A stretch of DNA of 64,000 nucleotides. Origin: Candidatus Binatia bacterium. GTDB taxonomy: Bacteria > Desulfobacterota > Binatia > UBA9968. The stretch spans positions 2,745 through 66,744 of the forward strand of contig DASXUF010000173.1 of NCBI GenBank assembly GCA_036504975.1, given 5' to 3'. The position numbers and the translations under genes were made by a program. This document shows, piece by piece, positions 2,410-19,248 of this stretch (position 1 is its first letter; the number at the start of each line of letters is the position of its first letter). The notes below the pieces were generated by a model. The model was given only the letters and a program-made list of their open reading frames with translations. It was not told the DNA's origin and searched no databases.

Positions 2410-2420
2410 ACTTTCCTCCG

Positions 2421-4090: not shown

Positions 4091-4109
4091 AACAAACCTC
4101 CATGTCCGT

Positions 4110-5081
4110 TCAGCGTTTGATTTCCAATTCCTTTTTGACCTCGGCGGCGAGCCGCAGGCTCAAAAACTTCTCCGGCGCCACATCTTCCTTTATTTTAAGC
4201 GGCGCCTTCACGTCAAACTCGATAACGTTTTTTATTCCCTGCGGCGACGGCAGTCCGGGAACGCCGTCCGGCAGAGCTTTCGCAAAAAGGCGCACGCCTT
4301 CGACCAGCATCGGCCGGGTGAGATTTCCTAACGGCAGCTTCTTTTGCGCGATGTCAGCCGCTTCTTCCGGCTTTTGCCGGATGAAGACCAGCGCGCGCAT
4401 CATCGCCCTGAGCCACCTTTTGATCTCGCCGGGCTTCTCCGCGATCTTCTTGTCCGTCGTCAGAAATCCCTGAAAAGGGTAAGGGAAAAGATCGCCGATG
4501 AAGGCGAGGGTATTCAACCCTTCTTTTTCGCCGAGCAGCGCCTCGTCTCCATTGACGACAGCGGCCTGAACTGCGCCGGTTTTGAGCGAGAGGAACGTCG
4601 TGACGGTATTTCGCGACGGCATCGCGACGCGCGTAACGTCGCGCGCCGACAAACCGTTGCGCTCGACCAGCATCGTGAGCAGCGTGTCCTGCGTGTCGCC
4701 GATCGTTCCGACCGCGATCCTTTTTCCCTTGAGATCGGAAATTTTTCGAATTTCGGGGGCGGTCAGCAGGTACCAGGTGACTTTTTCCGTCTGGAACATG
4801 ATCGCTTTGATCGGCGCGCCCCGTAGCGCCGCGCGCATCCCGCTTCCGCCCGCGCCGCTGTAATCCACTTCGCCGCTCACAAGCGCGGCGATCGCCGTCG
4901 TTCCTGGAATCACGATCGTTTCATTTTCCAGGTTCTCGTCGCGAAAGAACCCCTTCACTTCCGCCACCGGCACCGAGAGATAATTGAGCGTCGCCCGCGG
5001 TGTGATCGTCCGAACTTTCTCGGCGTAGACAGGTATTGCCAGCACGGTGATGGAAAGAGTTATCAAGAGGCGCACAACCAT
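4110..5081 (-). CDS. NMT1/THI5-like ABC substrate-binding protein with signal peptide
   Basis: Start refined to MVVRLLITLSITVLAIPVYA (cat at 5079-5081); SBP fold motifs follow. Confidence 0.7.
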   Translation of the reverse strand: MVVRLLITLSITVLAIPVYAEKVRTITPRATLNYLSVPVAEVKGFFRDENLENETIVIPGTTAIAALVSGEVDYSGAGGSGMRAALRGAPIKAIMFQTEKVTWYLLTAPEIRKISDLKGKRIAVGTIGDTQDTLLTMLVERNGLSARDVTRVAMPSRNTVTTFLSLKTGAVQAAVVNGDEALLGEKEGLNTLAFIGDLFPYPFQGFLTTDKKIAEKPGEIKRWLRAMMRALVFIRQKPEEAADIAQKKLPLGNLTRPMLVEGVRLFAKALPDGVPGLPSPQGIKNVIEFDVKAPLKIKEDVAPEKFLSLRLAAEVKKELEIKR

Positions 5082-5085
5082 TGCC

Positions 5086-5553
5086 TTAGCTTCGCGACGG
5101 TCCAATGCCGCCTGCTGCGAGAAGTCGCTGACGGTTCCTAAACCACTTGGAGGCCCGCTCGTTCCAAGGCCAGATGCCGTCTGTCGTGGGATATACCACC
5201 TGGAGCGTCTTAAATTGATCGCCGCCATAAAGCCATCGATTCCAACCGAGATACTCTGGGTAGTGCTCTGACCCTACCGGCACAAAGAGCACCTCGAAAC
5301 CTTCGAGGAAACCGGGGTAAAGGCGATCCGTCTCAAATGACTCACCTGAACGTATGCGGCTGTTATATTCGTTGATGGTGAAATGAGCGATGTCTTTCTT
5401 TAGGCCGATGACAATTACTTCAGGTGCGCCTGAAGACTTTTGGATTCCAACTGAATACGAGAAGGGAGGAAGATCCCCTTCTTCGAGTACATGTATAATA
5501 TGGCATCCGTGCTGCGCGATGTCCGCTAGGACCTTTTCGTCGTTTGAGTCCAT
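5086..5553 (-). CDS. DUF4262 domain protein
   Basis: 155 aa; first gene of the minus-strand SBP operon. Confidence 0.5.
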   Translation of the reverse strand: MDSNDEKVLADIAQHGCHIIHVLEEGDLPPFSYSVGIQKSSGAPEVIVIGLKKDIAHFTINEYNSRIRSGESFETDRLYPGFLEGFEVLFVPVGSEHYPEYLGWNRWLYGGDQFKTLQVVYPTTDGIWPWNERASKWFRNRQRLLAAGGIGPSRS

Positions 5554-5698
5554 CTCGGACCTTCTTGGGAATCGGCGGAGTTCCTTGAGCTGGAGCGGGG
5601 TGACGATCGTCGTCGATATTTTTGTACGGGGATTTGTCGCCGCCGACGCCTTTTAAGCCAACTTGCGTTTCGGATGTGCCCGGCCCGCTTCGTCCAGA

Positions 5699-5896
5699 TT
5701 ACTTCTCGGCGGCGCGTCGCCATTTTTTGCGAAGCTCTGCCGCCACTTCCGCGTGCGTCATCGTCCGGCCTGCTTTAGCATCGGCGCGGCCTTTGTCGAT
5801 TTCCTGCAGCACGTAGAGATGGTACAGGACTTCGTCCACGCTGCAATCGTTGGGGAGACGATCCAGGAGAGCTCGCACGGTTTCTTTAGCTTTCAT
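5699..5896 (-). CDS. small hypothetical protein (65 aa), possible antitoxin-like DNA-binding protein
   Basis: Compact ORF between DUF4262 and an SBP gene. Charged helical C-terminus (HAEVAAELRKKWRRAAEK). No firm family. Confidence 0.3.
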   Translation of the reverse strand: MKAKETVRALLDRLPNDCSVDEVLYHLYVLQEIDKGRADAKAGRTMTHAEVAAELRKKWRRAAEK

Positions 5897-5975
5897 ATCG
5901 TGTAATCCTTGGGGTGAATCCTACATGATCCGAGGCTTCTCTTCCACCTGTAGCCGATCTCTGCCGGCAGGCTAT

Positions 5976-6974
5976 CTATCTCCCCACTCCCACTTCCTTC
6001 TGCGCTTCTCTGAGCAGCGAGAAATCTACCAGCTTGGCGATCGGCGGGGCTTCTTTGAGGTTGAGCGGGGTAACGATCGTGTCGTTGATATTTTTGCGCA
6101 GCGATTCGTCGCTGGCGCCGCCGGGATCGCGCGGGTCGATGGCGCGGATGCAGACGGCCGACGCACCCTCGGCCACGTCTCGCGGATGATTGAACTCCTG
6201 CATCGCGATCTTGATCGTCTCCTCCCTCTTGTTCAGCATAAAGAGAAGCGCTTTCACCATCGCCCGCGTCCAGCGCTTGATCTTGTCGCGCTCCTGCGCG
6301 AGCTTGGCGTCGGTCGTGGCGTAGCCGGCCCACGGCCACGCGCCCATCTCCGCCAGCGAAGCCAGCTCGTTGAAGCCCTTTTTCTTCAGCAGAAAGGCTG
6401 CGTCGGGATTGAACGCGCGCGCGTGGATGATCTTCTGCTGCATCGCCAGCACGGAGGTCTCGGAGCCGCCGGTGGAAAAGAACGTCACGTCCTTTTTGGG
6501 GTTGAGTCCATGATGTTCGAGCACCATGCTGGCCGCCAGCTCGGTGCTGCTTCCCGGAGAGGTGATGCCGATGACTTTGCCTTTCAGGTCTTGAACCTTT
6601 TTGATCTCCGGAGCGCCGATCAGAACGAACGTCGATCGCTGGTGCGTGAAGAAGATTCCTTTAAGCGGCGCGCCTCGGGCCGCGGCTCTCATCGCCGAGC
6701 CGGCGGCGCCTGCGACGTCGAGCTCGCCGCCCATAAGTGCCGTAATAACGATGCTCGTATTGACAACCAGCCACTGCACTTCCAGCCCTTCTTCTTTGAA
6801 CAGGCCGGCGCGCATGCCGACGAAGAGCGGCAGGTAGCCGTAGTCTTTGGTGGACATGGCGACGCGGACTCTTTCCAGCGCCGGCGCGGCTGCGGACTCA
6901 CGCGGTAAGTTTGAAGACGAGGCCAATATGAAAAACGCCAACGCTGAAAAGATCCTGCAGGAGACTTTGTTCAT
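5976..6974 (-). CDS. NMT1/THI5-like ABC substrate-binding protein with signal peptide
   Basis: Start refined to MNKVSCRIFSALAFFILASS (cat at 6972-6974). Paralogous to 4110-5081 (same GxxDxxGAxGSxMRAAxRGAPxK block). Confidence 0.7.
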   Translation of the reverse strand: MNKVSCRIFSALAFFILASSSNLPRESAAAPALERVRVAMSTKDYGYLPLFVGMRAGLFKEEGLEVQWLVVNTSIVITALMGGELDVAGAAGSAMRAAARGAPLKGIFFTHQRSTFVLIGAPEIKKVQDLKGKVIGITSPGSSTELAASMVLEHHGLNPKKDVTFFSTGGSETSVLAMQQKIIHARAFNPDAAFLLKKKGFNELASLAEMGAWPWAGYATTDAKLAQERDKIKRWTRAMVKALLFMLNKREETIKIAMQEFNHPRDVAEGASAVCIRAIDPRDPGGASDESLRKNINDTIVTPLNLKEAPPIAKLVDFSLLREAQKEVGVGR

Positions 6975-7096
6975 GCCTTGGAGTCCTTCTGTCATCCTGG
7001 AGCCCTTCGGCTTCGCTCAGGGTAAACTCCGCGAAGGATCTCTCTTTTTCTTCGGAGAGATTCTTCGGCTTCGCCTCAGAATGACATTCTTTGTCC

Positions 7097-7522
7097 CTAA
7101 GCTGTTTTCTGCGGCGGCGCGAAATGAAGCTCCAGATAATTTCCCTCGCTGTCGAACATGTAGATTGTCTTGCCGCTGTTGCGCTCGACGATGCGATGAA
7201 ACTTCTTTAGCTCTTTAGCCTTCTTTAGAGCTTCTTCGTACTCATTCCAGTCCATCTCGAACGCCTGGTGCGCGATGCCGTCCTGGTCGAGCGCGTCTCT
7301 CTGAATCGGCTTCGGCCGCTCGAACAGGACGACGTCGTCGTCGCCACAGCGCAAACGGTCCAGCCGCTGTACTTTGCCGTGAATTTCCAGGGCGTCGGGA
7401 TTTTTCGGATTGCCGCCGACGCGCCCCATGAACTCCATGCCCAGGACCTTGGTATAAAATTCCTGCGCCCGGTCGATATCATCGACCGGAATTCCGACGT
7501 GGTAGAGTTTCGTGACTTTCAT
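7097..7522 (-). CDS. VOC family protein (glyoxalase/bleomycin-resistance/dioxygenase fold)
   Basis: 141 aa. MKVTKLYHVGIPVDDIDRAQEFYTKVLGMEF is a typical VOC N-terminal module. Confidence 0.7.
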   Translation of the reverse strand: MKVTKLYHVGIPVDDIDRAQEFYTKVLGMEFMGRVGGNPKNPDALEIHGKVQRLDRLRCGDDDVVLFERPKPIQRDALDQDGIAHQAFEMDWNEYEEALKKAKELKKFHRIVERNSGKTIYMFDSEGNYLELHFAPPQKTA

Positions 7523-7555
7523 CGTTTTCCTCCTTCCAACTATTCACTTTCTTGC

Positions 7556-8563
7556 TTACTGTAGAAATAACTTCGCGTATTCCTTTCTCTTCTCCGCAAA
7601 AGCCGCCGTGTCCAGCTCGTCCATCTCGATGACTTGAATCTTATCAGCATCGGCGAGCGGCGGATAGATTCCTTTGCGGGTCACAAATTCGCCCATCCTG
7701 GCGATGGCCTTCATGCTTTCTTCGTTGAGAAAAAAATCGATAAAGACTTTGGCCGCATTCGGATGAGCGGCCTTGTTGTCGAGAGCGATGTAATGGCCGT
7801 GGCCGAGCATCTTATCCTGCCGCACGTAATCCATCGGCGCGCCCTTCTGGCCGAAGGCCACGACATATTTCAGGTAGGTGATACCCAGCGGCGTCTCGCC
7901 GGTCGTGATGCGCTCGGCGGCGTTCAGCACACCCTCCACGATCACCGGTTTGGTGGCCGCGAGATCGCGAATATATTTTTCCGCCTTATCTTTGCCCATG
8001 AGCTTGTAGAGGCTCGCCGGCCAACTGGCCGCGATCACGCCGCGAGTGGGATCGGGCATCGCCAACTTGCCTTTGTATTCCGGCCTCAGCAGGTCTTCGA
8101 GGGATTTCGGCGCCGCCTCCGGCTTCATGATGCTCTTGTTGTAGACGATCCCCACGACGCCCGTGCGATATCTCGGCCCAAGCTCGGGGTGGATCAGGTT
8201 TTGCGGAAAATCTTTGCCGGCCGGCGAGCCGTATTTTGCGAAAATATTTTCTTTAAGAAGGATCAGCATCGGGCCGGAATTGGTCGCTACCACGTCGGAG
8301 ATCACCTTGCCGGCCCGGTGCTCGGTGACGACGCGGTCCGTGACCGAGGCGGCCGACGCCCGCCAGTAGTCTACGGTTATGCCGGTTTTCTTTTCGAAGG
8401 ATTTCTTGATGTCCTCGAAGATGTCCTGCTCCATCGATCCATAGACCACGACCTTACCCTCTTTTTTGCCTTCGGCGATGAGCTTGGCGTCCTGGGCCAA
8501 GAGCGGCTGCGTCAGGCAAAGTAGAAAAAAGACAATCGCGCCGCTCATTGTCCGATCACTCAT
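7556..8563 (-). CDS. extracellular solute-binding protein family 1 (Fe3+-type ABC SBP) with signal peptide
   Basis: 335 aa. Signal peptide AIVFFLLCLTQPLLAQ. Motifs KGKLAMPDP and HPNAAKVFIDFFL. Confidence 0.75.
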   Translation of the reverse strand: MSDRTMSGAIVFFLLCLTQPLLAQDAKLIAEGKKEGKVVVYGSMEQDIFEDIKKSFEKKTGITVDYWRASAASVTDRVVTEHRAGKVISDVVATNSGPMLILLKENIFAKYGSPAGKDFPQNLIHPELGPRYRTGVVGIVYNKSIMKPEAAPKSLEDLLRPEYKGKLAMPDPTRGVIAASWPASLYKLMGKDKAEKYIRDLAATKPVIVEGVLNAAERITTGETPLGITYLKYVVAFGQKGAPMDYVRQDKMLGHGHYIALDNKAAHPNAAKVFIDFFLNEESMKAIARMGEFVTRKGIYPPLADADKIQVIEMDELDTAAFAEKRKEYAKLFLQ

Positions 8564-8579
8564 TTCGCCTCCCTGAATC

Positions 8580-10481
8580 TCACTCGCCTAGGTGGCTCCA
8601 TTCGGAGAATTCTTCCAGCCTGAGCCGCGCGAGCGTATCCTTGAACGGCCGGCCGCTTCTCTCGTGTCTCCCCGATAAACGGTAATATTCGAAAATCATG
8701 TCCGGCAGCCATTTGGCGATGGTAAAGCCCTGATATTTCCCGTCGGGAATCGGCTCGAGAAAGCGCGCGCCGACGTCCTTCCAGTCGTGGTCGGCGATCC
8801 AGCCGCGCTGCGTGGCGAAAATGCTTTGCAGCAGCATGCTGCGATGGCCCGCCTCCAGCGCCTGATCGAGAGTAAAATTCCAGCCGGTGATCGCGTTGAA
8901 CGCATCGACGATGCTGTTGAGGCCGTCCGGCTTGTGTTGCATCTGCGCGAACCAGCAGCCGCCGAAGATTCCGGTGAACTGCCGGTGCTGCTCGGAGAGA
9001 ATGTGCGACCACGCCCAGCCGTCGGGGCTGTCGTCGGCCAGCGGGCCCCACTTTTCCCGGTAGCGCAAGTCCGGCGGCGGCTTGGCCGACCCGCCGCCCT
9101 GCGGTTTCATGCCGCCGCTCGCGACCAGCTCGCGGAGCATCTCGCCGAGCTTCGGGCGCCACTCGTGCATCGCCGGCGTCCCGCCTTTGGTGTGCACCGC
9201 CCACTTGGGCGCGTCGCCGCCGATCGCCTCCGCCACCTGCTTGGGACCGTCCGCTAAAAGATTCCCGAGCCAGCCCTCGCGCCGGGCCGCCATCTCCAAA
9301 AGTTTCTCCACCGCCTCGACGTTGCCCCATTCGAGCCGGAGTCCGTTGGTCCGCTCCGGACCGAGAAGGCCTTTCTCCCACGCCTCGAACGCCACGCCCG
9401 CGCCGCAGGAGAAATGGCTGCACTCGATGCCGAGGTCGTTGATTCGCTCCGCCAGATAGAGGGCGGCGTTTCCTTTGACGCCGAGGTTAAAAAAAGTATC
9501 GAGCCACTCGCCGCCGGCATTGAAGCGCACGGTGGTTCCCTTGTAAGGCCCCTCGCCGAGCGTCGCGTCCCAGGGGCAGAGTCGCTGGCACTGAAAGCAG
9601 GGGCGCAAAACCACGTCGTTCTTGTCGAAGCCGCGGATGTGCTCGGGATTCAAGTCGGTGCTGCGCCAGTTCAAGTTATTCAGCGCGCCCCACGATTCGC
9701 CGTGGCCATACTTGGTTTTTTTCTTCTGCACGTCGTGGACTTGCAAAATAGCCCGCCAGCGCATGCCCGCTTCGATCAGCTTCGCCTTGTCGCGAGCCGA
9801 AGGCCGGGCCGTGCCGCTGACGATAACGGCCTTCAATTTCTTGGAGCCGAAGACGGCGCCGCCGCTGTGGGCGGCGAAATGATTATAATCGTTCGCCAGC
9901 ATCGCCGCGCGGTTGAGATTCTCGCCCGCCGGTCCGATGCACAGTATCTTCGCGTCTTTGATACCGACCTCTTCGCGCAGCCGGTCTTCGGTTTGGCGAG
10001 TGCCCAATCCCCAGACCCGGCTCGCATCGCGTAGTTCGGCTTCTCCGTCGTGAATATATAGGTAGTATGGCTTCTCGGCAGCGCCGCTGATGATAAGTCC
10101 GTCGTAGCCCGCGGCTTTGAGATAGGTCCCCCAAAAGCCGCTGGTGGCGCCTCGGCCGAGCGTATAGCGGGTCAGCGGGCTGAGATAAACGGCGGTCATC
10201 TTGGTGCCGCCGGGCGTGAAGCCGTTGCCCGTGAGAGGGCCGGTCATGATGACGACGCGGTTTTCCGGGCCAAAGGGCTCGGCGTCGAGCGGTAATTCTT
10301 TAAGAAGAATGTAGGAAGCCAGCGCCTGCCCGCCAATGAATTTCTCCAGCACATGGGATTCGGGCAGGTTCTCGTCGTTGAGAGCGCCGGACGTGAGATC
10401 GACGCGGAGCAGTTTCCCCATGTAGCCGCCGGGAAGGGGGCTCTTGCGCGATGAAGGAAAAAGGTCGGAGTTTGCTGCCAT
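8580..10481 (-). CDS. tungsten-containing aldehyde:ferredoxin oxidoreductase (AOR family)
   Basis: 633 aa. AOR N-terminal domain (GKLLRVDLTSG; true start possibly the internal M of GYMGKLL) and CFQCQRLC (Cx2Cx3C) 4Fe-4S ligand motif. Size fits the AOR family. Confidence 0.85.
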   Translation of the reverse strand: MAANSDLFPSSRKSPLPGGYMGKLLRVDLTSGALNDENLPESHVLEKFIGGQALASYILLKELPLDAEPFGPENRVVIMTGPLTGNGFTPGGTKMTAVYLSPLTRYTLGRGATSGFWGTYLKAAGYDGLIISGAAEKPYYLYIHDGEAELRDASRVWGLGTRQTEDRLREEVGIKDAKILCIGPAGENLNRAAMLANDYNHFAAHSGGAVFGSKKLKAVIVSGTARPSARDKAKLIEAGMRWRAILQVHDVQKKKTKYGHGESWGALNNLNWRSTDLNPEHIRGFDKNDVVLRPCFQCQRLCPWDATLGEGPYKGTTVRFNAGGEWLDTFFNLGVKGNAALYLAERINDLGIECSHFSCGAGVAFEAWEKGLLGPERTNGLRLEWGNVEAVEKLLEMAARREGWLGNLLADGPKQVAEAIGGDAPKWAVHTKGGTPAMHEWRPKLGEMLRELVASGGMKPQGGGSAKPPPDLRYREKWGPLADDSPDGWAWSHILSEQHRQFTGIFGGCWFAQMQHKPDGLNSIVDAFNAITGWNFTLDQALEAGHRSMLLQSIFATQRGWIADHDWKDVGARFLEPIPDGKYQGFTIAKWLPDMIFEYYRLSGRHERSGRPFKDTLARLRLEEFSEWSHLGE

Positions 10482-10779
10482 CTTTATTCCGTTTCGACTG
10501 AAACATAGGAGAAGAGGCAGTTTGCGTCAAGAGCAATTCGGCTTAATCGCAAAAAATGCGCGCTGTCGAGGGGGGCCTGCGCCTCAGCGGGAGCCGATAG
10601 GCCTCTACTTGTCTGCTTCAAAGTGCCGTTTGGCTCGCCGGTTCTCTCTGTGAACCTCTATTGTCGGACGTCTCCCTGTCTTCGGCGCAGGCTCCCCTTC
10701 GCGCGCTCAAGTCCCTGGGTTCCGAAGGAGGAAACCTGAAGGCCGCAGACGCAGGGACGAGGAGGTTTCGGTAGGCCCG

Positions 10780-10915
10780 GACGGTGGGATTTAATCAGAC
10801 AAAGGGATGGGCGAGGGCGGTCCTCGAGGCAGAAAACTATCGTCTGCGGCCGGAAGGTTTTCTCCGAGGAACCGTACTTTGGGCCGAAGGCGAGCAATTC
10901 GCTTGCGGCAAAGGA
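10780..10915 (+). ncRNA. candidate Moco/Tuco-type riboswitch in the moeA 5' leader (tentative)
   Basis: ~490-nt untranslated gap between divergent AOR and moeA. Contains CTCCGAGG and GGGCCGAAGGCG elements and nested stems reminiscent of the Moco RNA motif; its gene context (moeA, AOR) is canonical for that riboswitch. Not verified by a covariance model. Confidence 0.25.
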
Positions 10916-10970
10916 TTTGGTCATTTGCTTACCGGCGAAGCTTTTGAATATACTTCTTGCGAGTGAAGCG

Positions 10971-12209
10971 ATGGCGAAGGCATTTTTCAAAGTCGTAACG
11001 CCGAAGGAGGCGCGCGAGATTCTGCTCAGGGCGCTTCCGGTGGGGACCGAACCGGTCGAAACCGTTCGCGCGCGCGGCCGCGTTCTTGCGGAGGACCTGT
11101 ACTCAAAAGTCGATCTGCCGCATTTCAGCCGCGCGGCGATGGACGGCTACGCCGTGATCGCCAAAGACACTTTCGGCGCGAGCGCGAGCCAGCCTGGTTA
11201 TTTGAAGCTCGTCGGCACTGTCGAGATGGGAAAGGAAGCGACGCGCCCGCTCAGCAAGGGTGAAGCGATGCGGATCTCAACCGGCGGCATGCTGCCGCCG
11301 GGAAGCGACGGCGTGGTGATGGTCGAATATACGGAAGAGGCGGGCGCAGACACGGTGGAGATCCATCGCGGCGTGTCGCCATGGCAAAACGTGATCCAGA
11401 TCGGCGACGACATCCAAAAAGGCGCGCCGGTTTTCCCGCGCGGGCGGCGCCTGAGGGCGCACGATCTCGGCGCGCTGACCGGCATCGGACTCTCCGCGCT
11501 GCCGGTTTACAAGAAGCCGCGCGTCGCGCTGATCTCGACGGGCGACGAGATCGTCGAAGCGGAGCGCGAGCCGCTCCCCGGCCAGGTGCGCAACATCAAC
11601 CAGCACTCGCTCGCCGGTCTCATCGACGAGTGTGGCGGCGAGCTGAAGGACTTCGGCGTGATTCGCGACGACCGGGACGCTCTTCGTGAAGCGCTCGATC
11701 AAGCGCTTCGCTGGGCGGATCTCGTGCTTCTCTCCGGCGGCAGCTCGATGGGCGCCAAGGATATCGCGCTCGACGTGATCCTTTCTTTCCCCCAGGCCGA
11801 AATGGTTTTTCACGGTATTTCCGTGAGCCCGGGTAAGCCGACGATCTTCGCGCGCGCCGGCGGCAAGCCGGTGCTGGGACTTCCGGGCTATCCGGTCTCG
11901 GCGCTCGTCATCTTCGAGCTTTTCGCCGCGCCGCTGATCCGCACCCTCGGCGGCGAGGATGCGGCGGCCGCATGCGAGTTCAAAAAGACCACGCGCGCCG
12001 TTCTCAAAACCAACGTCGCGTCCCAAGCCGGGCGCGAAGATTACATTCGCGTCTGCCTTGAGCAGGCGAACGGCAAGCTCTACGCCCAGCCGCTGCCGAG
12101 CAAGTCGGGCGCGATTTTTACGCTGGTGAAAGCGGACGGCATGATCCGGATCGATTTAAACCAGGAAGGGATCGAGCAGGGAGAGGAAGTCGAGGTAATA
12201 CTTTTTTAG
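10971..12209 (+). CDS. moeA: molybdopterin molybdotransferase MoeA
   Basis: Start refined to MAKAFFKVVTPKEAREILL (ATG 10971). Full MoeA N, MoCF-biosynthesis and C domains (SGGSSMGAKD, GLPGYPVSALV). Confidence 0.85.
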   Translation: MAKAFFKVVTPKEAREILLRALPVGTEPVETVRARGRVLAEDLYSKVDLPHFSRAAMDGYAVIAKDTFGASASQPGYLKLVGTVEMGKEATRPLSKGEAMRISTGGMLPPGSDGVVMVEYTEEAGADTVEIHRGVSPWQNVIQIGDDIQKGAPVFPRGRRLRAHDLGALTGIGLSALPVYKKPRVALISTGDEIVEAEREPLPGQVRNINQHSLAGLIDECGGELKDFGVIRDDRDALREALDQALRWADLVLLSGGSSMGAKDIALDVILSFPQAEMVFHGISVSPGKPTIFARAGGKPVLGLPGYPVSALVIFELFAAPLIRTLGGEDAAAACEFKKTTRAVLKTNVASQAGREDYIRVCLEQANGKLYAQPLPSKSGAIFTLVKADGMIRIDLNQEGIEQGEEVEVILF

Positions 12210-12348
12210 GGAGAGATCCTTCACGGAGTTTACCCTGAGACTCTTCCTTCGTTCAGAGTGACAAACGAAGGGTTCAGGATGACAAATTCAACGCTGTCAT
12301 TCTGAGCGCAGCGAAGAATCTCTCTTTTCCCGAACGTTATTTTTCACG

Positions 12349-14280
12349 ATGGCGCGCAAACGATACCTCAAGAAAACTCCGCTCAAAGAAGCTCGCGAGC
12401 TTTTTTTGAGCCGCGTCGATCCGCGCGCGCTCGCGAGCGAAGAGTTGCGCATGGATCAGGCGCTCCATCGCGTCACTTCCGACCCGGTCTTCGCGCGTAT
12501 CTCCTCTCCCCACTATCACGCCGCCGCCATGGACGGGATCTGCGTGCGCGCAGAAGATACCTTCGGCGCGACCGAGTTCGCGGCAAAAAAGCTCAGGTGG
12601 ACGCCGCGCGAGGGGGGAGGGGAGGGAGCTTTCGCTTACGTCGACACCGGCAACTCGATTCCGCTCTGGGCCAACGCCGTCATCATGATCGAAAAAGTCC
12701 ATCAGCTCGACGACGGCAACGTGGAAATCTTCGACTCCGTCGGCCCCTGGAACCACGTGCGGCTCGTCGGCGAAGACGTCGTCGCGACCGAGCTGCTGCT
12801 GCCGCGCGCGCACCGGCTTCGCCCTTACGATCTCGGGGCGCTTTTGGCCGCGGGCCATACGACGGTAAACGTCAAAGAGAAGCCGAGAGTGGCGATTCTC
12901 CCGACCGGCGACGAGCTGATCGAGCCTGGCGACGAGCCGAAACCCGGAGCGGTGATCGATTTCAACTCCAGCGTGCTCGGGGCTTTCATCCAGGAATGGG
13001 GCGGCGAGCCGGTCAAGTCGCCGCGGGTCAAGGACGATCCGGCCGAGCTCGGCGCGGCATTGAGAGCAGCGCTGGAAAAAAATCACGTGGCCGCGATCAT
13101 CGCCGGCTCGTCCGCCGGCGAGCACGACTTTACGGCGGAGGTTATTGCCAACGCCGGCGAGCTGCTGGTCCATGGCATCGACGTGATGCCGGGAAAGCCG
13201 GCGGTCCTGGGAATTGTGGACGGGAAACCCGTCATCGGCATACCCGGCTATCCGGTCTCGGCGATCGTCATCGCGCGCGAGATACTCCGGCCCGTCATCG
13301 AAAAACTGTTGGGCGCCGGCCCGCAGTCGGCGCCTTCGGTTAAAGCCGTGGTGCCGAAGAAGATCCCTTCGCACCTCGGCCTGGAGGAATTCGTCCGGGT
13401 TAATTTGGGCCGCGTGGAATCCAAGCTTGTCGCAGTGCCGCTCGGCCGCGGCGCCGGCGTCATCACGACGATGGTCCACGCCGACGGTTTGATGCGCATT
13501 CCGAGTCTTGTCGAGGGCATCAACGGCGGCGACGAGGTGGAAGTCGAGCTGTTGCGGCCGATCGAAGAAGTCGAGAACACGATACTCTGCACTGGCAGCC
13601 ACGATCTCGCGATCGGCGTGCTCGAAGACCAGCTCAAGATGAGTTATCCGGAATTGAAAATCGCGGCGACCAACGTCGGCAGCGTCGGTGGTTTGCTGGC
13701 GCTTAAGCGCCGCGAGACGCACATCGCCGGCAGCCATCTCCTCGACCCGGACACTGGCGCGTATAACGTCCCCGACATCAAGCGCCTCATCCCAGGCACT
13801 CCGTTGGTTCTGGTTCATCTGGCGCGGCGCGAGCAGGGGCTGATCGTCAAGAAGGGCAACGCGAAAAAGGTTTCGGGCCTGCAAGATCTGTTGAGACCAG
13901 ATCTAACTTTCGTCAACCGCCAGCCAGGCTCAGGCACACGCGTTCTCCTCGACTACGAGCTCAAGCGACTCCAACTCGATTCGGCGCAAATCCGCGGCTA
14001 CGAGCGCGAGGAATTCACGCACATGTCGGTCGGCGTGGCGATCGCGAGCGGGCTCGCGGACGTCGGCTTGGGCGTGCGCTCCGCCGCCAACGCCCTCGGC
14101 CTCGACTTCATCCCTGTCGGCAACGAGCAGTACGACCTCGTCGTGCTGCGATCGTTTTTCGAGTCGGAAAAAGGGGAGAGGCTCGTTGACGTGATCCGCT
14201 CCGACGGCTTCAAAAAGGCTGTCACGGCGCTGGGCGGATACAATACGGGTAGAGCGGGAGAAGTTCTTTACCGTCAGTGA
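12349..14280 (+). CDS. MoeA-like molybdopterin molybdo-/tungsto-transferase fused to a C-terminal PBP-like (substrate-binding-like) domain
   Basis: 643 aa. The N-terminal ~400 aa are a MoeA paralog (GIPGYPVSAIV). The C-terminal ~240 aa are a periplasmic-binding-protein-like domain of the kind fused to MoeA in tungsten-utilising organisms. Confidence 0.8.
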   Translation: MARKRYLKKTPLKEARELFLSRVDPRALASEELRMDQALHRVTSDPVFARISSPHYHAAAMDGICVRAEDTFGATEFAAKKLRWTPREGGGEGAFAYVDTGNSIPLWANAVIMIEKVHQLDDGNVEIFDSVGPWNHVRLVGEDVVATELLLPRAHRLRPYDLGALLAAGHTTVNVKEKPRVAILPTGDELIEPGDEPKPGAVIDFNSSVLGAFIQEWGGEPVKSPRVKDDPAELGAALRAALEKNHVAAIIAGSSAGEHDFTAEVIANAGELLVHGIDVMPGKPAVLGIVDGKPVIGIPGYPVSAIVIAREILRPVIEKLLGAGPQSAPSVKAVVPKKIPSHLGLEEFVRVNLGRVESKLVAVPLGRGAGVITTMVHADGLMRIPSLVEGINGGDEVEVELLRPIEEVENTILCTGSHDLAIGVLEDQLKMSYPELKIAATNVGSVGGLLALKRRETHIAGSHLLDPDTGAYNVPDIKRLIPGTPLVLVHLARREQGLIVKKGNAKKVSGLQDLLRPDLTFVNRQPGSGTRVLLDYELKRLQLDSAQIRGYEREEFTHMSVGVAIASGLADVGLGVRSAANALGLDFIPVGNEQYDLVVLRSFFESEKGERLVDVIRSDGFKKAVTALGGYNTGRAGEVLYRQ

Positions 14281-14338: not shown

Positions 14339-14872
14339 TCAAGCAGATCCGAAAGTGTCGATGGTTTTCTCCACGGCTCGTCGGAAGGCCGGCGCGTCGA
14401 TAGCGGGATAGCGATACAATTGCGGTTCGATCGCTTCGAAAAGTTTTCGGAGTTCGACCGGCTCAATAAGGCCGCGTCGGAACATTTCCTGGACATCCGT
14501 AACATCGAGCGCATGGCCGCGCTCGATCTTCGCCAATGCCTGCGCGTAAAGATCATAGTGGTAGAAGCTCAACGGCCCCTCTTGGACGATGAAAAGGCTC
14601 CGCTCTTCCCAATGCGGCAGTTCGGGAATGAAATGGGCCGGACAGGCCAACTCCAGGTTGATTTCAAGCTCTTCCTTCAGCGCCGGTAGCGCTCGTAGAA
14701 CCGCGTCTTCCTCCGGAACAAGGAGTATGTCAACGTCGATCGTGCTGGAACGCCAGCCCAGTAACACGGCAGTTGCCCCGCCGGTGAAGTAAAGACGGGC
14801 ATTGCGTGCGGCTTTGGCGCTGATGGCTTTGATGAAACGTTGGATGTGATCGCGGCCGGCTAGGCGACGCAT
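14339..14872 (-). CDS. putative nucleotidyltransferase (DUF6036/MNT-like), toxin-antitoxin-like cassette component
   Basis: 177 aa; overlaps the upstream 107-aa ORF by 13 nt (translationally coupled pair). Lies between two tRNA-Arg 3' repeats. Confidence 0.45.
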   Translation of the reverse strand: MRRLAGRDHIQRFIKAISAKAARNARLYFTGGATAVLLGWRSSTIDVDILLVPEEDAVLRALPALKEELEINLELACPAHFIPELPHWEERSLFIVQEGPLSFYHYDLYAQALAKIERGHALDVTDVQEMFRRGLIEPVELRKLFEAIEPQLYRYPAIDAPAFRRAVEKTIDTFGSA

Positions 14873-15183
14873 TCGAGGGCTCGTTCGAAGCGCACCAACC
14901 GGCGCAGCAGCGCGTTGTAACGCGAGTGCGCCGAGTCGGGATTGGAGGAGGCAAGGAGCCGATACAGTTCGTGTTCAGGAATCTTTAAACCGGGTTCCGG
15001 CACCTTAAATCCAAGCCGGCGTAGTCGTGGAGCGCCGATAAGAACAAGGAGAGCTGCCTCTGATTCCCGCCCTGCGGCCAGATCTTCAAGCCCTTTGCGG
15101 ACCAACTCGCCGCCGGGGAAAGGACTGAAATCCTTGAGATCCATATACGCACTTTCGTACCACGCAGGACCGCGCCGTTTCAA
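14860..15183 (-). CDS. small partner protein of the NTase cassette (hypothetical, 107 aa)
   Basis: Co-oriented, overlapping the downstream NTase gene. No other family evidence. Confidence 0.35.
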   Translation of the reverse strand: MKRRGPAWYESAYMDLKDFSPFPGGELVRKGLEDLAAGRESEAALLVLIGAPRLRRLGFKVPEPGLKIPEHELYRLLASSNPDSAHSRYNALLRRLVRFERALECVA

Positions 15184-15237
15184 GGATCTTCAACCAAGCT
15201 CAACGCCGAGGATGTTCAGGAATTTTTGCTGCACTCA

Positions 15238-15267
15238 TGCGCCCGCCGAGATTCGAACTCGGACTTA
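15238..15267. repeat. direct repeat copy 2: 3'-terminal 30 nt of tRNA-Arg(CCG) (att-like)
   Basis: tgcgcccgccgagattcgaactcggactta; identical core to copy 1. Shares the ggactTA extension with the intact tRNA-Arg at 22249-22323. Confidence 0.7.
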
Positions 15268-15374
15268 AGATCACTAACTAAGAATCAGCTTACTTACCCG
15301 AGGCGCATTTCAAAACTTGACGAGTCAGTCGTCAAATGTCATGATTATCGTCGGAAAGGCGCCAAGCGTGGCAA

Positions 15375-16520
15375 ATGGACGTGCCGGTCATTCAACGCAT
15401 CGTCAACCTACCGGAATGGCTGAAGAAGAAGTCCCATTTTCTCTTTGGCCCGCGCCAGACTGGAAAGACTTTCCTGGTTCGCCAGGTCCTGCCCCAAGCG
15501 CGAGTCTACGACCTGCTCGACAGTTCGGTTTACCTGGCTCTCAGCCAGCGGCCCAGCCGGTTGGCGGAAGAACTGACGCCTCGGGATAAGCTGGTCGTCA
15601 TCGACGAGGTCCAGCGCCTGCCGGAACTTCTCAACGAAGTCCATCGCCTGATCGAGCAGCGCGGCATCTGTTTTCTTCTCACCGGCTCGAGCGCGCGCAA
15701 GTTGCGCCGCGGCGGCGTCAACCTTCTTGGCGGCCGCGCCCGCACGCGTCATCTGCACCCGTTGACCTACCGCGAGCTGGGAGAGCACTTTGAGTTATCG
15801 CAGGCCATCGAGCGCGGGCTGTTGCCGTCGATTTATTTCTCTGACGATGCGAAAGCAGACCTCGACGCGTACACCGGCACTTACTTGCAGCAGGAAATCG
15901 TTGCGGAGGGGTCCACGCGAAACGCGCCGGCCTTCAGCCGCTTCTTGCGCGTCGCCGCCCTGTGCAACGCGACGCTCGTCAACTTTACCAACGTGGCTAA
16001 CGACGCCCAGGTGCCGCGAACGACCGTCTACGAATATTTCGAAATTCTGAAGGATACACTGCTGCTGCATGAACTCCCGGCGTGGCGGTCGTCGAAGAAG
16101 CGCAAGCCGGTGGTCTCGTCCAAGTATTACTTCTTTGACGCGGGAGTCGCTTCGGCTCTGCAAGGGCGGCTGGTGAAACAGGGCGCACCTGAATTCGGCG
16201 GCGCCTTCGAGACTTGGCTGTTTCATGAACTCATCGCCTGGCGGGACTATGCGTCGGGCGAAGCGTTGAGCCACTGGCGCTCCACTTCCGGCTTCGAGGT
16301 GGACTTCATTCTCGGCGATCACACCGCCGTCGAGATCAAGGCTAAGGAGAACGTGTCCCCGCAAGATCTCAAATCGCTGCGGGCGCTAGCCGAAGAACAA
16401 AAGCTGAAGCGGTATCTTTGCGTGAGTTTGGAGCCGCGTCCGCGCGAGCTTGAGGGAATCGCAATCCTCCCCTACAAGCAGTTCCTCGATGCGCTGTGGA
16501 CCGGCGAATTCTCGTCCTAA
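15375..16520 (+). CDS. AAA family ATPase (DUF4143-type, archaeal-ATPase-like)
   Basis: 381 aa. Walker A GPRQTGKT, Walker B LVVIDEV, DUF4143-like C-terminal region. This family is frequent on genomic islands. Confidence 0.75.
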   Translation: MDVPVIQRIVNLPEWLKKKSHFLFGPRQTGKTFLVRQVLPQARVYDLLDSSVYLALSQRPSRLAEELTPRDKLVVIDEVQRLPELLNEVHRLIEQRGICFLLTGSSARKLRRGGVNLLGGRARTRHLHPLTYRELGEHFELSQAIERGLLPSIYFSDDAKADLDAYTGTYLQQEIVAEGSTRNAPAFSRFLRVAALCNATLVNFTNVANDAQVPRTTVYEYFEILKDTLLLHELPAWRSSKKRKPVVSSKYYFFDAGVASALQGRLVKQGAPEFGGAFETWLFHELIAWRDYASGEALSHWRSTSGFEVDFILGDHTAVEIKAKENVSPQDLKSLRALAEEQKLKRYLCVSLEPRPRELEGIAILPYKQFLDALWTGEFSS

Positions 16521-16659
16521 CTGCGCGTGCCGTATGCTGGAATCATCTATCTTTGAATGATACGTGATTGCACGCTGCGCTGTATTGTCGGAATCTTAGG
16601 AGAGAGAAAAATCCTCACCGCCATAGATCTGTAGGCGTTCATAAAAAAGGAGAAATATT

Positions 16660-17217
16660 ATGGCAGACAACGAGAACAAAGAACTATGGGAACAGGGACA
16701 GTCTTCGCTTTTCAAGGCGCGGCTCGAGCGTCGCAAAGCGGATACAGCCCGACGCAAGGCGGGCCGCAAGGCGCTCACGGCCGAAGAGGTCAAGATGGAG
16801 TGGGAGCCGACCAACGGCGTTTGGTTCGGGAGTCTCTGCACGCGAGAGCTGGGCTTCGACAATCGGATCATCGAAGTCGATTGCCACATCTACCCGCCGC
16901 ATTCGCATTCGGTCACGCACAAGCATAACGAAGCGATCATTATCATTCTAAGAGGGAGAGGCTACAGTATTCTGGACGGCGAGCGCATCGACTGGAAGCC
17001 AGGCGATACTCTCTACATCGGCCAGGGAGTCTGGCACCAGCACCACATCACCAGCGACGAGCCGGCTATGGCATTCGCCATCAAGCCGCTGCCGCTGCAA
17101 GAGTATCTGGGCGAGCTGAATATCATCTACAAGGGCGACAAGCCCAAGATCAACGAGACTTTTAAAGCCAAATCGTTCGTCGAAGAGTTCGCGAAGATTA
17201 ACAACGAGAAAAAGTAG
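16660..17217 (+). CDS. cupin domain protein
   Basis: 185 aa. HIYPPHSHSVTHKHNEAIIIILRGRGY...GQGVWHQHHITS matches the two-motif cupin signature. Confidence 0.6.
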   Translation: MADNENKELWEQGQSSLFKARLERRKADTARRKAGRKALTAEEVKMEWEPTNGVWFGSLCTRELGFDNRIIEVDCHIYPPHSHSVTHKHNEAIIIILRGRGYSILDGERIDWKPGDTLYIGQGVWHQHHITSDEPAMAFAIKPLPLQEYLGELNIIYKGDKPKINETFKAKSFVEEFAKINNEKK

Positions 17218-17460
17218 ACGACCTTCCGTCGGGAACAAGCTATACGATCTCGCCAGCGTCAAACAACGTGTGATCTACGGCGCGGCGGCTACATCTTTGT
17301 TTGGTGGAAAGGAGATCACCCGCCCAGGCATGTGCACGTTTACAGGGACGAAAGGCTTGTCGTGAAGTGGGATATCGATAACCATAAAGCCATGAAAGGA
17401 GATGCGTCGAAAAAGGTCGTTAAGCTCATCGAGGAACTCGAGTCGGAAGGGTTGCTATGA
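17218..17460 (+). pseudogene. DUF4160-like small ORF lacking a canonical start codon (possible pseudogene or unconventional start)
   Basis: Frame reads ...GGYIFVWWKGDHPPRHVHVYRDERLVVKWDIDNHKAM...ELESEGLL, matching the DUF4160 GDHxPPHxH core. It opens directly after the cupin stop with no ATG/GTG/TTG in frame. ATGA overlap with the next gene. Confidence 0.35.
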
Positions 17461-17924
17461 AGGTTAGGTCGGTAAGTTTCAATAACAAGAGGAAGGATTT
17501 CGTTGTCAAAGCATCCGGCAAGACGTATGCCTTTCCTTACGTCAAAGCCAGGCCGAGTCCGACTTCGGACGATCCAGTCGCCCAGGTCTATGTCGACAAA
17601 GAGCTTGGCGGCGAAGGGTTCACGTACAAGCTTCAATCGGGAAAGACGGGAACCGTACATGTAGAGCAGGTGCTGGAATACAATCGAGATCCGAACTATC
17701 TGAGAGATCTCATGCTGTATAAATTAACATTGGAGGCTCAAAGGCGCATCGCTGAAAGCCCGCTCTCCAAGCGCGAAATCGTTCGCAGGTTAGGCACTTC
17801 TGCGACTCAGCTCTATCGGCTGCTGGACCAAACCAATTATCAGAAGTCGGTGGACCAGCTTGTCTCTCTGCTTCAACTCCTGGAGTGCGACGTCGATCTG
17901 GTGGTGCGGAAGAAGTCGGCGTAG
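17457..17924 (+). CDS. DUF2442-like N-terminal domain / C-terminal HTH protein (partner of DUF4160 cassette)
   Basis: 155 aa. MKVRSVSFNNKRKDFVVKASGKTYAFPY resembles a DUF2442 beta N-terminus. SKREIVRRLGTSATQLYRLLD is an HTH. Start overlaps the upstream stop (ATGA). Confidence 0.4.
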   Translation: MKVRSVSFNNKRKDFVVKASGKTYAFPYVKARPSPTSDDPVAQVYVDKELGGEGFTYKLQSGKTGTVHVEQVLEYNRDPNYLRDLMLYKLTLEAQRRIAESPLSKREIVRRLGTSATQLYRLLDQTNYQKSVDQLVSLLQLLECDVDLVVRKKSA

Positions 17925-17951
17925 TTCTCTTCAGCGCTTCAATCTTATAAT

Positions 17952-19043
17952 TTACTTTCCCTGCTCTCTCGACTTCATTATGGATTTGGCGAGCTCGAAG
18001 ATCGGCGCCATGTCGGCGTACTCCGGCCGCGCGACGTCGAGGTATTTTCTTCCCTCGACGATTCGATTGTCCGGCGGAACGTCACCTTTGGGAATATCGA
18101 TTCGCCTGGAGTTCGGCGGGTTTTCCGGATAACCGTATTTCTGTAAAGCGATTTGTCCCTTGCGCGAGAGAAACCAGTTGATGAAAACCTTCGCCGCGTT
18201 CGGATGTGGCGCCTGATTCATGAGACTGAGAGAGCCGTTCCGTACTCCAAAAGCGCTGCCTTCTTTCCAACCGCTCGTGTCCAGAGTCTCTATGGGAAGA
18301 CCCTGAGCTCTAGCCATGGATGCGGCGCAACCGAGGCAAAGAGCAAACTTGCCCTGAGCGAGCCAGTCCGTCATCTGCCGCTGGTCCCGGCTGAATGTTA
18401 CGTCCATCCGACCGAAGAACCGCTTGATGAATTCAGGGCCCAAGTCGGGATGATGAAAGAAAAACTGCATCGGGATGCCGATGCCGGTGTTGGTAGGCTC
18501 AAACGAGACGATCTTTCCTTTCCACTTCGAATTCAAAAGATCCCAGTACGATTTGAATTCCTTCGGCTCGACCAGCGTTTCGTTGTAGGCGAGCCGCATC
18601 GCGCTGGGATTGACTTCGTACGCGAAGATGTATTTTCCCTCGGCGTCGATGTATCGGTGTTCTCCTCCGTACCAGTGAGACTGTTCCACAACTTCGGGCA
18701 ACACGAGACTCGGCTTGATGGGATCGAGCGCCTTGCCTTTATAAAGAACGTTGTAGCTGGTGTTGGCGCCACTACTGAAAACGTCCGGGATGAATTTTCC
18801 GCCCCGCCTTTCAGCGACAACCCGGCTTCCCAACTGCGAACCCGGCGCCGCCAGCGAGTTCACCTTTATTTCCGGAAACTCCTTCTCGAACCATTTTACC
18901 GCTGGCTCGTACTGGTAGATGTAAATCGTCACCTGCCCGTCTTTTTTCGCCGCTGCCAAAGTTTCGGTCCACGTCTCTGATGAGCCGGCATAGCCGGAAC
19001 CGGTAAAGGTAAGAAGAGATAGCAAAGCCCGATACAACTTCAT
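17952..19043 (-). CDS. extracellular solute-binding protein family 1 (Fe3+-type ABC SBP) with signal peptide
   Basis: Start refined to MKLYRALLSLLTFTGSGYA (cat 19041-19043). Motifs KWKGKIVSFEP and HPNAAKVFINWFLS. Confidence 0.75.
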   Translation of the reverse strand: MKLYRALLSLLTFTGSGYAGSSETWTETLAAAKKDGQVTIYIYQYEPAVKWFEKEFPEIKVNSLAAPGSQLGSRVVAERRGGKFIPDVFSSGANTSYNVLYKGKALDPIKPSLVLPEVVEQSHWYGGEHRYIDAEGKYIFAYEVNPSAMRLAYNETLVEPKEFKSYWDLLNSKWKGKIVSFEPTNTGIGIPMQFFFHHPDLGPEFIKRFFGRMDVTFSRDQRQMTDWLAQGKFALCLGCAASMARAQGLPIETLDTSGWKEGSAFGVRNGSLSLMNQAPHPNAAKVFINWFLSRKGQIALQKYGYPENPPNSRRIDIPKGDVPPDNRIVEGRKYLDVARPEYADMAPIFELAKSIMKSREQGK

Positions 19044-19248
19044 CCGCGATTTCCAATTGCGCATACTGTCACGCATTCGAAATCGGAGATAACCCACTTT
19101 TGTAAGAGCTGTCAAACAAAAAAGACGTATAGAGGAAGTCCGCAGGGGGATCTATTAAACGGACTTCGAGTCGTGTTATCTGTTGCCAGTGCTTCGCGCC
19201 GAAAAAGCGTCCCAGGGCGTCCCCTTCGCCGTAAAGGAGGGAGTCTTT

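Follow-up and report, generated by a model that had tools for sequence, protein, structure and literature searches.

The locus described here lies in a 64-kb stretch of DNA from Candidatus Binatia bacterium (contig DASXUF010000173.1), the whole of which we refer to as the window and whose gene content was read from an open reading frame (ORF) map and a Pfam scan. It comprises a gene for a member of the aldehyde:ferredoxin oxidoreductase (AOR) family and two paralogs of moeA, the second of which encodes a C-terminal domain resembling a periplasmic binding protein (PBP). All three genes are intact, with Pfam scores far above those that chance would give, at the positions reported in the initial annotation of this DNA, which had the AOR diverging from a first moeA and a moeA-PBP fusion coming next. 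Its statement that the AOR is flanked by two MoeAs has to be corrected, as the AOR has moeA genes on one side only, where both lie upstream of it and divergent. The features of the locus are the following:

8580-10481, minus strand: large subunit of the AOR/WOR family, 633 aa (Pfam AFOR_N and AFOR_C)
10482-10970: divergent intergenic spacer, 489 bp (promoter and Rfam scans)
10971-12209, plus strand: short moeA, 412 aa, predicted archaeal MoeA2-type metal insertase (MoeA_N, MoCF_biosynth, MoeA_C)
12349-14280, plus strand: long moeA, 643 aa, predicted MoeA1-type with C-terminal PBP_like domain (Pfam, NF011068)
12349-13629, plus strand: MoeA part of the long moeA, domains I-IV, residues 1-427 (MoeA_N 11-169, MoCF_biosynth 182-318, MoeA_C 332-402)
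13630-14280, plus strand: C-terminal PBP_like domain of the long moeA (residues 428-617) and tail, cytoplasmic (PF12727)

The locus was compared with 80 related genome loci around relatives of the AOR, cited below by number where they have to be told apart. These relatives are almost all from Binatia metagenome-assembled genomes (MAGs), some of which carry older 'Deltaproteobacteria' or 'Syntrophobacter' labels, and the long MoeA-PBP is 100% identical to a protein annotated in a Candidatus Binatia MAG from soil. L082 is the public contig of the same organism and extends past the left end of the window by an extra 5 kb, and L053 and L003 share one contig of a sister Binatia genome.

The two moeA genes lie on the same strand with a gap of 139 bp, and their products are 37-38% identical. 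The ORF of the short gene opens at 10917, and the ATG at 10971, which is the start in the public contig call, was taken as the likely one. In the short MoeA the MoeA_N, MoCF_biosynth and MoeA_C domains are full length (E=1.6e-46 to 3e-20), PGKP and PGYPVS were found by pattern search, and AMDGY, STGDE and IRDD were recognized by eye in the printed sequence. The four MoeA domains of the long copy are likewise all full length, and its motifs AMDG, TG, TGDE, DD, PGKP and PGYPVS are invariant across 26 orthologs. Related genomes, 16 of them or more, have both MoeAs with 65-95% conservation, and as both copies are intact and keep the catalytic motifs, neither is a pseudogene. The initial annotation called the short gene a canonical moeA, which does not agree with the finding that both copies are nearer to archaeal MoeA; the best match in the PDB for each was Pyrococcus horikoshii MoeA (1uz5) with 282 bits for the short and 217 bits for the long copy, compared with 187 and 129 bits for E. 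coli MoeA. Moreover, the long MoeA scores 756 bits against NF011068 (PRK14498; cut-off 534), residues 1-641 of the query covering positions 1-645 of the 647 in the model, and the best NCBIfam model for the short MoeA is the MoeA part of this same NF011068.

It has been documented that an ancestral duplication in archaea gave rise to MoeA1, which is fused to a cytoplasmic PBP-like domain, and MoeA2, that the MoeA1-PBP and MoeA2 genes are usually contiguous and are also contiguous in some bacteria, and that MoeA-PBP co-occurs with TupA (PMC11291035). The Binatia genes resemble that tandem in that a MoeA of ~400 aa is encoded contiguously, on the same strand, with a ~640-aa MoeA that ends in a cytoplasmic PBP-like domain, in that both copies are closer to archaeal than to E. 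coli MoeA, and in the co-occurrence of TupA in at least one sister genome. They differ from it in that Binatia are a lineage of aerobic soils, whereas the bacterial carriers in that study are from anaerobic or facultative, thermophilic and methanogenic niches, and in that the Binatia pair is physically linked to a candidate client enzyme. By these likenesses the pair is, in our assignment, an archaeal-type MoeA2/MoeA1-PBP tandem, the MoeA1/MoeA2 orthology being read here from architecture and scores. No other gene of molybdenum cofactor (Moco) synthesis was found beside the pair in the window or in the flanks of its relatives (Pfam, inspection of neighbours), and Pfam scans of the 64 kb detected neither a further Moco gene nor another Mo or W enzyme.

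The PBP-like domain occupies the last ~230 residues of the long MoeA. It was assigned to PBP_like (PF12727) with 250 bits (E=1.2e-74) in the whole protein and with 253 bits when scanned alone, in which case the further matches were SBP_bac_11 (ModA/WtpA; 27.4 bits, over cut-off), PBP_like_2 (TupA/PstS; E=0.004) and then Phosphonate-bd; reciprocally, a Binatia TupA-like protein matches PBP_like weakly (E=6e-4). Ser/Thr/Gly-rich loops (GSHD, TNVGSxGG, NRQxGSGTR) are invariant in the domain, and there is a short FVxRxxxSGT loop resemblance to Binatia TupA (E=0.14). Neither E. coli ModA nor Binatia TupA gave a significant profile comparison with the domain, and a sequence search of solved structures with the domain gave no match. 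This family-level support makes the fused domain a candidate for capture of an oxyanion, tungstate or molybdate. The initial annotation had proposed that the PBP fusion may be the oxyanion-discriminating or sensing element, and the proposal is sustained in so far as the nearest other Pfam families are oxyanion-binding solute-binding proteins (SBPs). It is, though, not a new idea, since it has been explicitly hypothesized that MoeA1-PBP makes the tungsten cofactor, and in an AlphaFold dimer model of the same study a groove connects the ligand site of the PBP-like domain with the active site of MoeA (PMC11291035).

With regard to the AOR, Pfam detects AFOR_N (PF02730; 209.9 bits, E=4e-62) and AFOR_C (PF01314; 159.8 bits, E=1.5e-46), both over cut-off, and the absence of a signal peptide and of a Tat motif indicates a cytoplasmic protein. 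It matches Pyrococcus furiosus AOR (PfAOR; 1aor) with E=1.5e-64 and 31% identity, and the solved AORs in general at ~30%. An AlphaFold 2 (AF2) model (pLDDT 94.8) has the three-domain AOR fold and was superposed with P. furiosus AOR, C. autoethanogenum AOR and a bifurcating WOR. In Foldseek it gave TM scores of 0.85/0.89 to 1aor and 0.86/0.90 to 9g7j, with 9mqx also in the 0.85-0.90 range, and E<=0.001 was reached by AOR-family chains alone. In alignments with PfAOR, Cys295, Cys298, Cys302 and Cys509 align to the [4Fe-4S] ligands C288, C291, C295 and C494 of PfAOR (CxxCxxxC...C), and these cysteines and Glu325 are invariant in 92 members of the AOR's own clade collected from the related loci. 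By its domains, Fe-S cysteines and fold the protein is a true member of the AOR/WOR family, and it is predicted to carry a bis-pyranopterin metal cofactor and one [4Fe-4S] cluster.

The family assignment does not extend to the details of the active site. According to reviews, the second shell of aldehyde-oxidizing AORs consists of Thr243, Glu313, Tyr427 and His448 in PfAOR numbering (PMC12096430, PMC13328260), and in MAFFT alignments with PfAOR and 49-73 family representatives the AOR of the window departs from PfAOR in this set and at other positions:

PfAOR Glu313: Glu325 in the window AOR, kept; at least 90% conserved family-wide
PfAOR Tyr427: His439; His is the commonest state among the relatives compared and a known conservative variant
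PfAOR Thr243: His260; Thr in 57 of 73 relatives
PfAOR His448: Lys459/Pro460, no His; His in 45 of 73 relatives
PfAOR Glu311: Gly323
PfAOR Tyr312: Gly/Ser
PfAOR Thr344: Cys354
PfAOR Ser346: His356

The placement of Glu313 is ambiguous, as the pairwise HMMER alignment lies 2 residues off, and the multiple-sequence MAFFT placement at Glu325, obtained with 50-80 family members, was preferred. Pterin-contact residues are changed as well (R76K, R182H, D343E, D489G), and the altered second-shell and pterin-contact states are invariant or nearly so in the 92 clade members. Compared with solved AORs (P. furiosus AOR, 9g7j and 9mqx), the protein shares the three-domain fold, the CxxCxxxC...C cysteines, Glu313 (Glu325) and Arg430, and it shares the replacement of Tyr427 by His with C. 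formicoaceticum AOR; it differs from P. furiosus AOR, at ~30% identity, in the replaced second-shell and pterin contacts. Because Thr243, Glu311, Tyr312, His448 and pterin contacts are replaced, 'aldehyde:ferredoxin oxidoreductase' is to be taken as a family label and not as a demonstrated activity. The initial annotation of a tungsten-type aldehyde:ferredoxin oxidoreductase thus stands as far as the family is concerned, whereas the tungsten type and the aldehyde activity go beyond the evidence. A clade-invariant Glu-Cys-x-His motif (E353, C354, H356; about 9416-9427) takes the place of the Asp-Thr-x-Ser of the classical first pterin-binding motif and could be an additional ligand or a proton relay.

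This protein belongs to a discrete Binatia clade with at most 44% identity to anything outside it. Clustering of a library at 50% identity leaves a single cluster for the entire clade, with a representative 69% identical to the window AOR; the nearest full-length relatives outside have 44, 42 and 41% identity, and a large number of others lie at 29-38%. The clade is large, with thousands of metagenomic copies and at least two paralogs per genome in several MAGs, and its members are named by NCBI only as 'aldehyde ferredoxin oxidoreductase N-terminal domain-containing protein'. In the scheme of Putumbaka et al. the gene has the layout of WOR Class I (WorL with no adjacent WorS, WorN or WorABC gene), its neighbours being an SBP, a glyoxalase and moeA genes. 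Membership in the YdhV/BamB group was considered and rejected. In BLASTP, YdhV aligns only to an N-terminal stretch of 221 aa (residues 16-235) of the window AOR, at 35% identity, and the C-terminal domains stay unaligned, the YdhV equivalog model NF007354 scores 170 bits against a cut-off of 868, and BamB is among the weakest PDB matches by sequence and by fold. The superfamily and the N-terminal domain are thus shared with E. coli YdhV and Geobacter BamB, whereas their extra Cys metal ligand (YdhV Cys336, BamB Cys322) has no equivalent here, YdhV Cys336 falling in an insertion without counterpart in the window AOR or PfAOR. The AOR therefore does not group with Mo-dependent members, the outcome that the initial annotation had named as fatal to a tungsten assignment. 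The parts of the published WOR classification open to our search, text and supplements, do not mention Binatia or RIFCSPLOWO2 MAG names, and a literature search returned no paper connecting Binatia or Binatota to AOR or tungsten.

Linkage between moeA and AOR genes recurs in 18 of the 80 related loci. Short and long moeA occur together in 16 of these and the short gene alone in two, where nothing was found beyond it; in none of the 80 was the PBP-fused moeA seen without the short copy. When the count was limited to AORs at least 80% identical to that of the window with at least 9 kb of upstream sequence (n=18), the pair was upstream and divergent within 10 kb of the orthologous AOR in 10 loci, which compares with a chance expectation of ~0.4% for a neighbour within +/-10 kb in a genome of ~5 Mb. 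Pair and AOR are separated by 98-343 bp in the five closest relatives and by 2-6 kb elsewhere, with island genes in between. In four loci (L059, L063, L071, L074) the pair is convergent with another AOR paralog, which has 69-71% identity to the AOR of the window, and lies ~3-6 kb downstream of it. Much of the signal is synteny inherited inside a single class. Linkage that outlasts rearrangement in this way argues for a functional tie as judged from gene order, though not for exclusive service to the AOR.

The spacer between the AOR and the short moeA offered little in the way of regulatory signals. Its length is not conserved, given the 98-343 bp in the closest relatives, and a promoter scan gave a single sigma70-like match for the AOR at 10530-10502 (minus). 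A Moco or tungsten cofactor (Tuco) riboswitch or other structured RNA was rejected, as nothing in the window reached Rfam gathering thresholds and 10380-11080 gave only noise at E<=10. A sigma54 promoter for AOR or moeA was rejected too, there being no -24/-12 match in the spacer and fewer matches across the window than expected by chance.

As to the metal, all characterized AOR/WOR clades other than that of YdhV are, according to review, tungsten enzymes, one of them from an obligate aerobe, and YdhV is a family member that uses molybdenum (PMC12096430). Searches of the 64-kb window by Pfam and by tblastn with E. coli ModABC and Binatia TupABC did not turn up any transporter gene of the tup, wtp or mod type, which bears out the initial annotation on the absence of tupABC and wtpABC, and no ModA homologue was found in 1.13 Mb of Binatia AOR neighbourhoods. 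In the sister genome, however, L053 carries tupC-, tupB- and tupA-like genes (6326-9021) between the two AORs of the island, in the interval that separates an NMT1 gene from a gene pair for a Fer4_11 polyferredoxin and a second AOR paralog (AOR2). The tupA-like product (282 aa) has a TTTS motif and scores 210 bits against NF041772; the tupB-like product scores 168 bits and the wtpC/modC-like ATPase 277 bits. The syntenic spot in the window (192-333) is only 140 bp long, which is a presence/absence polymorphism relative to L053. On the same contig, L003 encodes an AOR and a short MoeA that are 92% identical to those of the window. Moreover, L062 has TupB and TupC, and L074 has a weaker TupA-like gene ~4 kb from its moeA pair. 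Taken together, tungsten is a plausible, though unproven, cofactor metal, to which we give roughly even or better odds from what the genes suggest.

We propose that the island AOR is matured by the tandem, with the PBP-like domain capturing tungstate for MoeA, and put the probability of this reading at roughly 0.55. The AOR would be a cytoplasmic enzyme of single-subunit layout with a metal-bis-pyranopterin and one [4Fe-4S], and would most likely oxidize an aldehyde or related carbonyl supplied by neighbouring aldolases and hydrolases. Its electrons would go to ferredoxin or a polyferredoxin and, in relatives, possibly on to a Fer4-NrfD membrane module. MoeA2 and MoeA1-PBP would perform the metal-insertion step of cofactor synthesis, in which the PBP-like domain would probably capture tungstate (molybdate being less likely) and hand it over to the MoeA active site, and the short MoeA would either handle the other metal or cooperate with the long copy.

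A number of findings weigh against this proposal. With Thr243, Glu311, Tyr312 and His448 missing from the AOR and the pterin contacts R76K, R182H, D343E and D489G altered, aldehyde oxidation and even the cofactor geometry are extrapolated. For eight of the 18 AOR orthologs the moeA pair is missing from the 10 kb of sequence upstream, and immediate adjacency is limited to the five closest relatives, so that the linkage signal is partly inherited synteny and does not reflect independent events. Neither the window nor the additional 5 kb of its contig contains a gene of the tup, wtp or mod type, just 2-3 of about 80 loci have tup genes within the island, and the TupA-like scores of 210 and 117 bits are under the NCBIfam equivalog cut-off of 400. 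The AF2 model of the MoeA-PBP fusion, computed from a multiple sequence alignment of sequences 72-93% identical, reached a pLDDT of 53.6, too low for inspection of the proposed channel. Neither MoeA carries the tungsten-biasing residues of Methylorubrum extorquens MoeA1, in which Arg291 and Ala312 correspond to Lys and Ser in both Binatia copies. Finally, soil oxyanion chemistry favours molybdenum, as molybdate is usually more available in the oxic soils where Binatia live.

It is possible that the tandem is a general MoeA set for all Mo and W enzymes of the cell and that its adjacency to the AOR is synteny inherited at an island boundary, an explanation that we regard as unlikely and yet as one to be taken seriously. 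It agrees with the position of the pair at the island edge beside flotillin, PspA and ispE (L004) or a carboxyltransferase (L025), with the orthologs that have no pair within reach, and with the lack of clustering of further Moco genes. In archaea the same tandem is ancestral and general (PMC11291035), and there is at most one tandem per related locus; the complete chromosome OZ244621.1 (L039, L074) has it at one of two AOR loci. The linkage, however, survives rearrangement, from adjacent divergent pairs to pairs 2-6 kb apart and convergent ones, and MoeA genes beside WOR operons have been reported in the literature. A housekeeping pair could still serve the AOR, in which case the explanation would be compatible with the maturation proposed above. 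We consider it rather unlikely that the locus encodes a molybdenum system, in which the AOR clade would bind Mo-bis-molybdopterin as E. coli YdhV does, the tandem would make Moco and the PBP-like domain would bind molybdate. This would fit the usually greater availability of molybdate in oxic soils, the lack of a tungstate transporter in the window and its contig, the precedent of YdhV and the best non-self Pfam match of the fused domain, which is the ModA/WtpA family. The placement of the AOR outside the YdhV/BamB group (no Cys336 insertion, an alignment confined to the N-terminal part and a weak BamB match), the tungsten in the other characterized clades including that of an obligate aerobe, the tupABC-like genes within the same island of L053, and the absence of ModA homologues from the AOR neighbourhoods point the other way.

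The genetics of M. extorquens, where MoeA1 serves a W enzyme and MoeA2 serves Mo enzymes (PMC13197769), bears on the molybdenum alternative as well. Both Binatia MoeAs have Lys in PGKP and Ser in PGYPVS, which are the Mo-type states there, although these determinants are from a different MoeA lineage and may not transfer. A W or Mo assignment from them was rejected as uninformative, both copies having Lys and Ser, and the absence of Arg291 and Ala312 from both means that the sequence does not tell which MoeA serves the AOR. The two systems are alike in having two MoeA paralogs in one aerobic bacterium and differ in that the M. extorquens MoeAs are of bacterial type without PBP fusion and their client is a formate dehydrogenase with W-bis-molybdopterin guanine dinucleotide. 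As a further alternative, MoeA-PBP may be a sensor, store or regulator, its PBP_like domain acting as it does in regulators that join a helix-turn-helix (HTH) to PBP_like, such as TunR, and only the short MoeA may be catalytic. PF12727 domains are reportedly fused to DNA-binding domains in tungstate-responsive regulators, and the long copy is the more divergent MoeA (217 vs 282 bits to 1uz5). We nevertheless consider this very improbable, as the long MoeA has its MoeA domains at full length, catalytic motifs that are invariant across its orthologs and no DNA-binding domain in Pfam, and as the ligand site of the PBP-like domain in the published AlphaFold dimer lies on a groove towards the active site of MoeA (PMC11291035).

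MoeA1-PBP is the leading archaeal candidate for the step by which cells steer tungsten over molybdenum into a shared pyranopterin cofactor. The pair described here is a new occurrence of a described unit for which a hypothesis has been published, with nothing categorically new, and no new principle comes from the locus. Its value lies in the physical coupling of the tandem to a likely client, the occasional coupling to tupABC and the variant AOR clade. The locus puts an archaeal-type tandem into an abundant, largely aerobic soil phylum beside a probable client enzyme, and in one sister genome the tandem lies within about 12 kb of a tupABC-like transporter, so that the PBP domain and both MoeAs of Binatia could reasonably be taken into expression studies. 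The locus of Cetobacterium somerae CsWOR41, with tupABC and moeA adjacent (PMC13328260), is similar in that a WOR-family gene is clustered with a MoeA gene; the tungstate ABC transporter is shared by the sister genome L053 and not by the window. The enzymes differ, as CsWOR41 is of Class V (Tat/membrane) and belongs to the YdhV-related clade 41, whereas the AOR of the window is of Class I and AOR2 of Class II.

The AOR clade is a new, uncharacterized one in a known family and visibly altered in its active site, and it is to be flagged for active-site residues unlike those of every characterized AOR. It is tempting to see in it a new functional subtype of aerobic soil bacteria, in which a non-classical second shell (His260, Glu325, Glu353-Cys354-x-His356, His439, Lys459) would confer other chemistry or O2 tolerance and which would be tied to a dedicated W-insertion pair and, in some genomes, tupABC. 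We hold this to be improbable as a whole; if it were true, the locus would offer a compact natural genetic system for testing the choice of W over Mo.

By its surroundings the locus is the right-hand edge of a conserved, probably catabolic island of Binatia. To the left of the AOR the following features were found:

192-1, minus strand: N-terminal part of a Fer4_11 polyferredoxin (WorS-like), truncated at the window edge (tblastn, 73% to the Fer4_11 protein of L027)
333-1268, plus strand; 2421-3434, 4110-5228 and 5976-6995, minus strand: NMT1/SsuA-type SBPs (Pfam, L082 gene calls)
1345-2409, minus strand: Fe3+-type SBP (Pfam, L082 gene calls)
3365-4090, minus strand: dienelactone hydrolase (DLH; Pfam, L082 gene calls)
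7097-7522, minus strand: glyoxalase/vicinal oxygen chelate (VOC)-family protein (Pfam Glyoxalase)
7556-8563, minus strand: Fe3+-binding-protein-type SBP, exported (Pfam SBP_bac_6/11/1/8; signal peptide)

The SBP at 7556-8563 lies directly downstream of the AOR and is probably co-transcribed with it. Its best solved homologues are iron-binding proteins (E=5e-19), as the description of an orphan Fe3+-type SBP had it, and it is present in only part of the orthologous loci. The idea that it is a hidden tungstate binder (ModA/WtpA/TupA) was rejected, because its homologues bind Fe3+, pyridoxal phosphate (PLP) or phosphonate and some orthologous loci are without it. The glyoxalase is a conserved partner downstream of this group of AOR orthologs, and copies 71-87% identical to that of the window adjoin or sit near the AOR in many related loci. 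The partial 4Fe-4S protein that had been noticed nearby is the Fer4_11 N-terminus at 192-1. In L082 the full polyferredoxin (265 aa) is followed, left of the window, by AOR2 (618 aa), and beyond that by NMT1-type SBPs, a class II aldolase, a BNR protein and a sigma54 response regulator. With its Fer4_11 partner and no Tat signal, AOR2 has the layout of WOR Class II.

The part of the island at 333-6995 is syntenic in L003-L007, L042, L045, L053 and L057. Recurrent in related loci are at least two AOR paralogs, which share 64-67% identity and are spaced by 4-7 kb, as well as NMT1/SsuA-type and Fe3+-type SBPs, DLH, glyoxalase, class II and DeoC aldolases and a Zn-dependent alcohol dehydrogenase (Zn-ADH). 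Fer4_11 was found in 41 of the 80 loci. Fusions of a four-cluster Fer4_11 ferredoxin to an NrfD membrane protein occur in 20 (L027 743-2179 and 19 others) and not in the window, and they suggest electron transfer to quinone. A 724-aa ORF at 1345-3519 (minus) was dismissed as an artefact of high GC content, since public calls split it into the Fe3+-type SBP at 1345-2409 and an NMT1_3 protein at 2421-3434, and several long antisense ORFs of the region were dismissed as artefacts of the same kind.

On the other side, beyond the long moeA, the stretch at 14339-23400 holds a DUF6036 nucleotidyltransferase with a 94-aa ORF (toxin-antitoxin-like), an AAA_14/DUF4143 ATPase, and cupin, HTH, SBP and CoA-transferase genes, and ends near tRNA-Arg (22249-22323). 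It may be an insertion, as L004 has the flotillin, PspA and ispE genes at this place. The rest of the window consists of housekeeping genes, many orphan SBPs and histidine kinases with GAF domains. At least 11 SBP genes of the NMT1/SsuA and Fe3+/PhnS types were counted (333-8563, 17952-20193, 54299-55519, 59780-60928, 62104-63108), and the 64 kb yielded no gene for an ABC permease or ATPase. All five SBPs checked to the left of the AOR have a signal peptide; the product of 333-1268 is without one. A gene resembling that of the formylglycine-generating enzyme (FGE-sulfatase; 30657-31505, minus) and a pair of family I CoA-transferase subunit genes (20293-22142, plus) both appear unrelated to the locus. 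Five consecutive sensor histidine kinases are encoded at 35590-51642 (plus), the first of 1824 aa with nine GAF domains and the remaining four with 1-5 GAF domains together with PAS, HAMP or Tll0287-like domains, and the first kinase is preceded, at 35228, by a sigma54-like -24/-12 match (TGGCATATGGCTTGCT).

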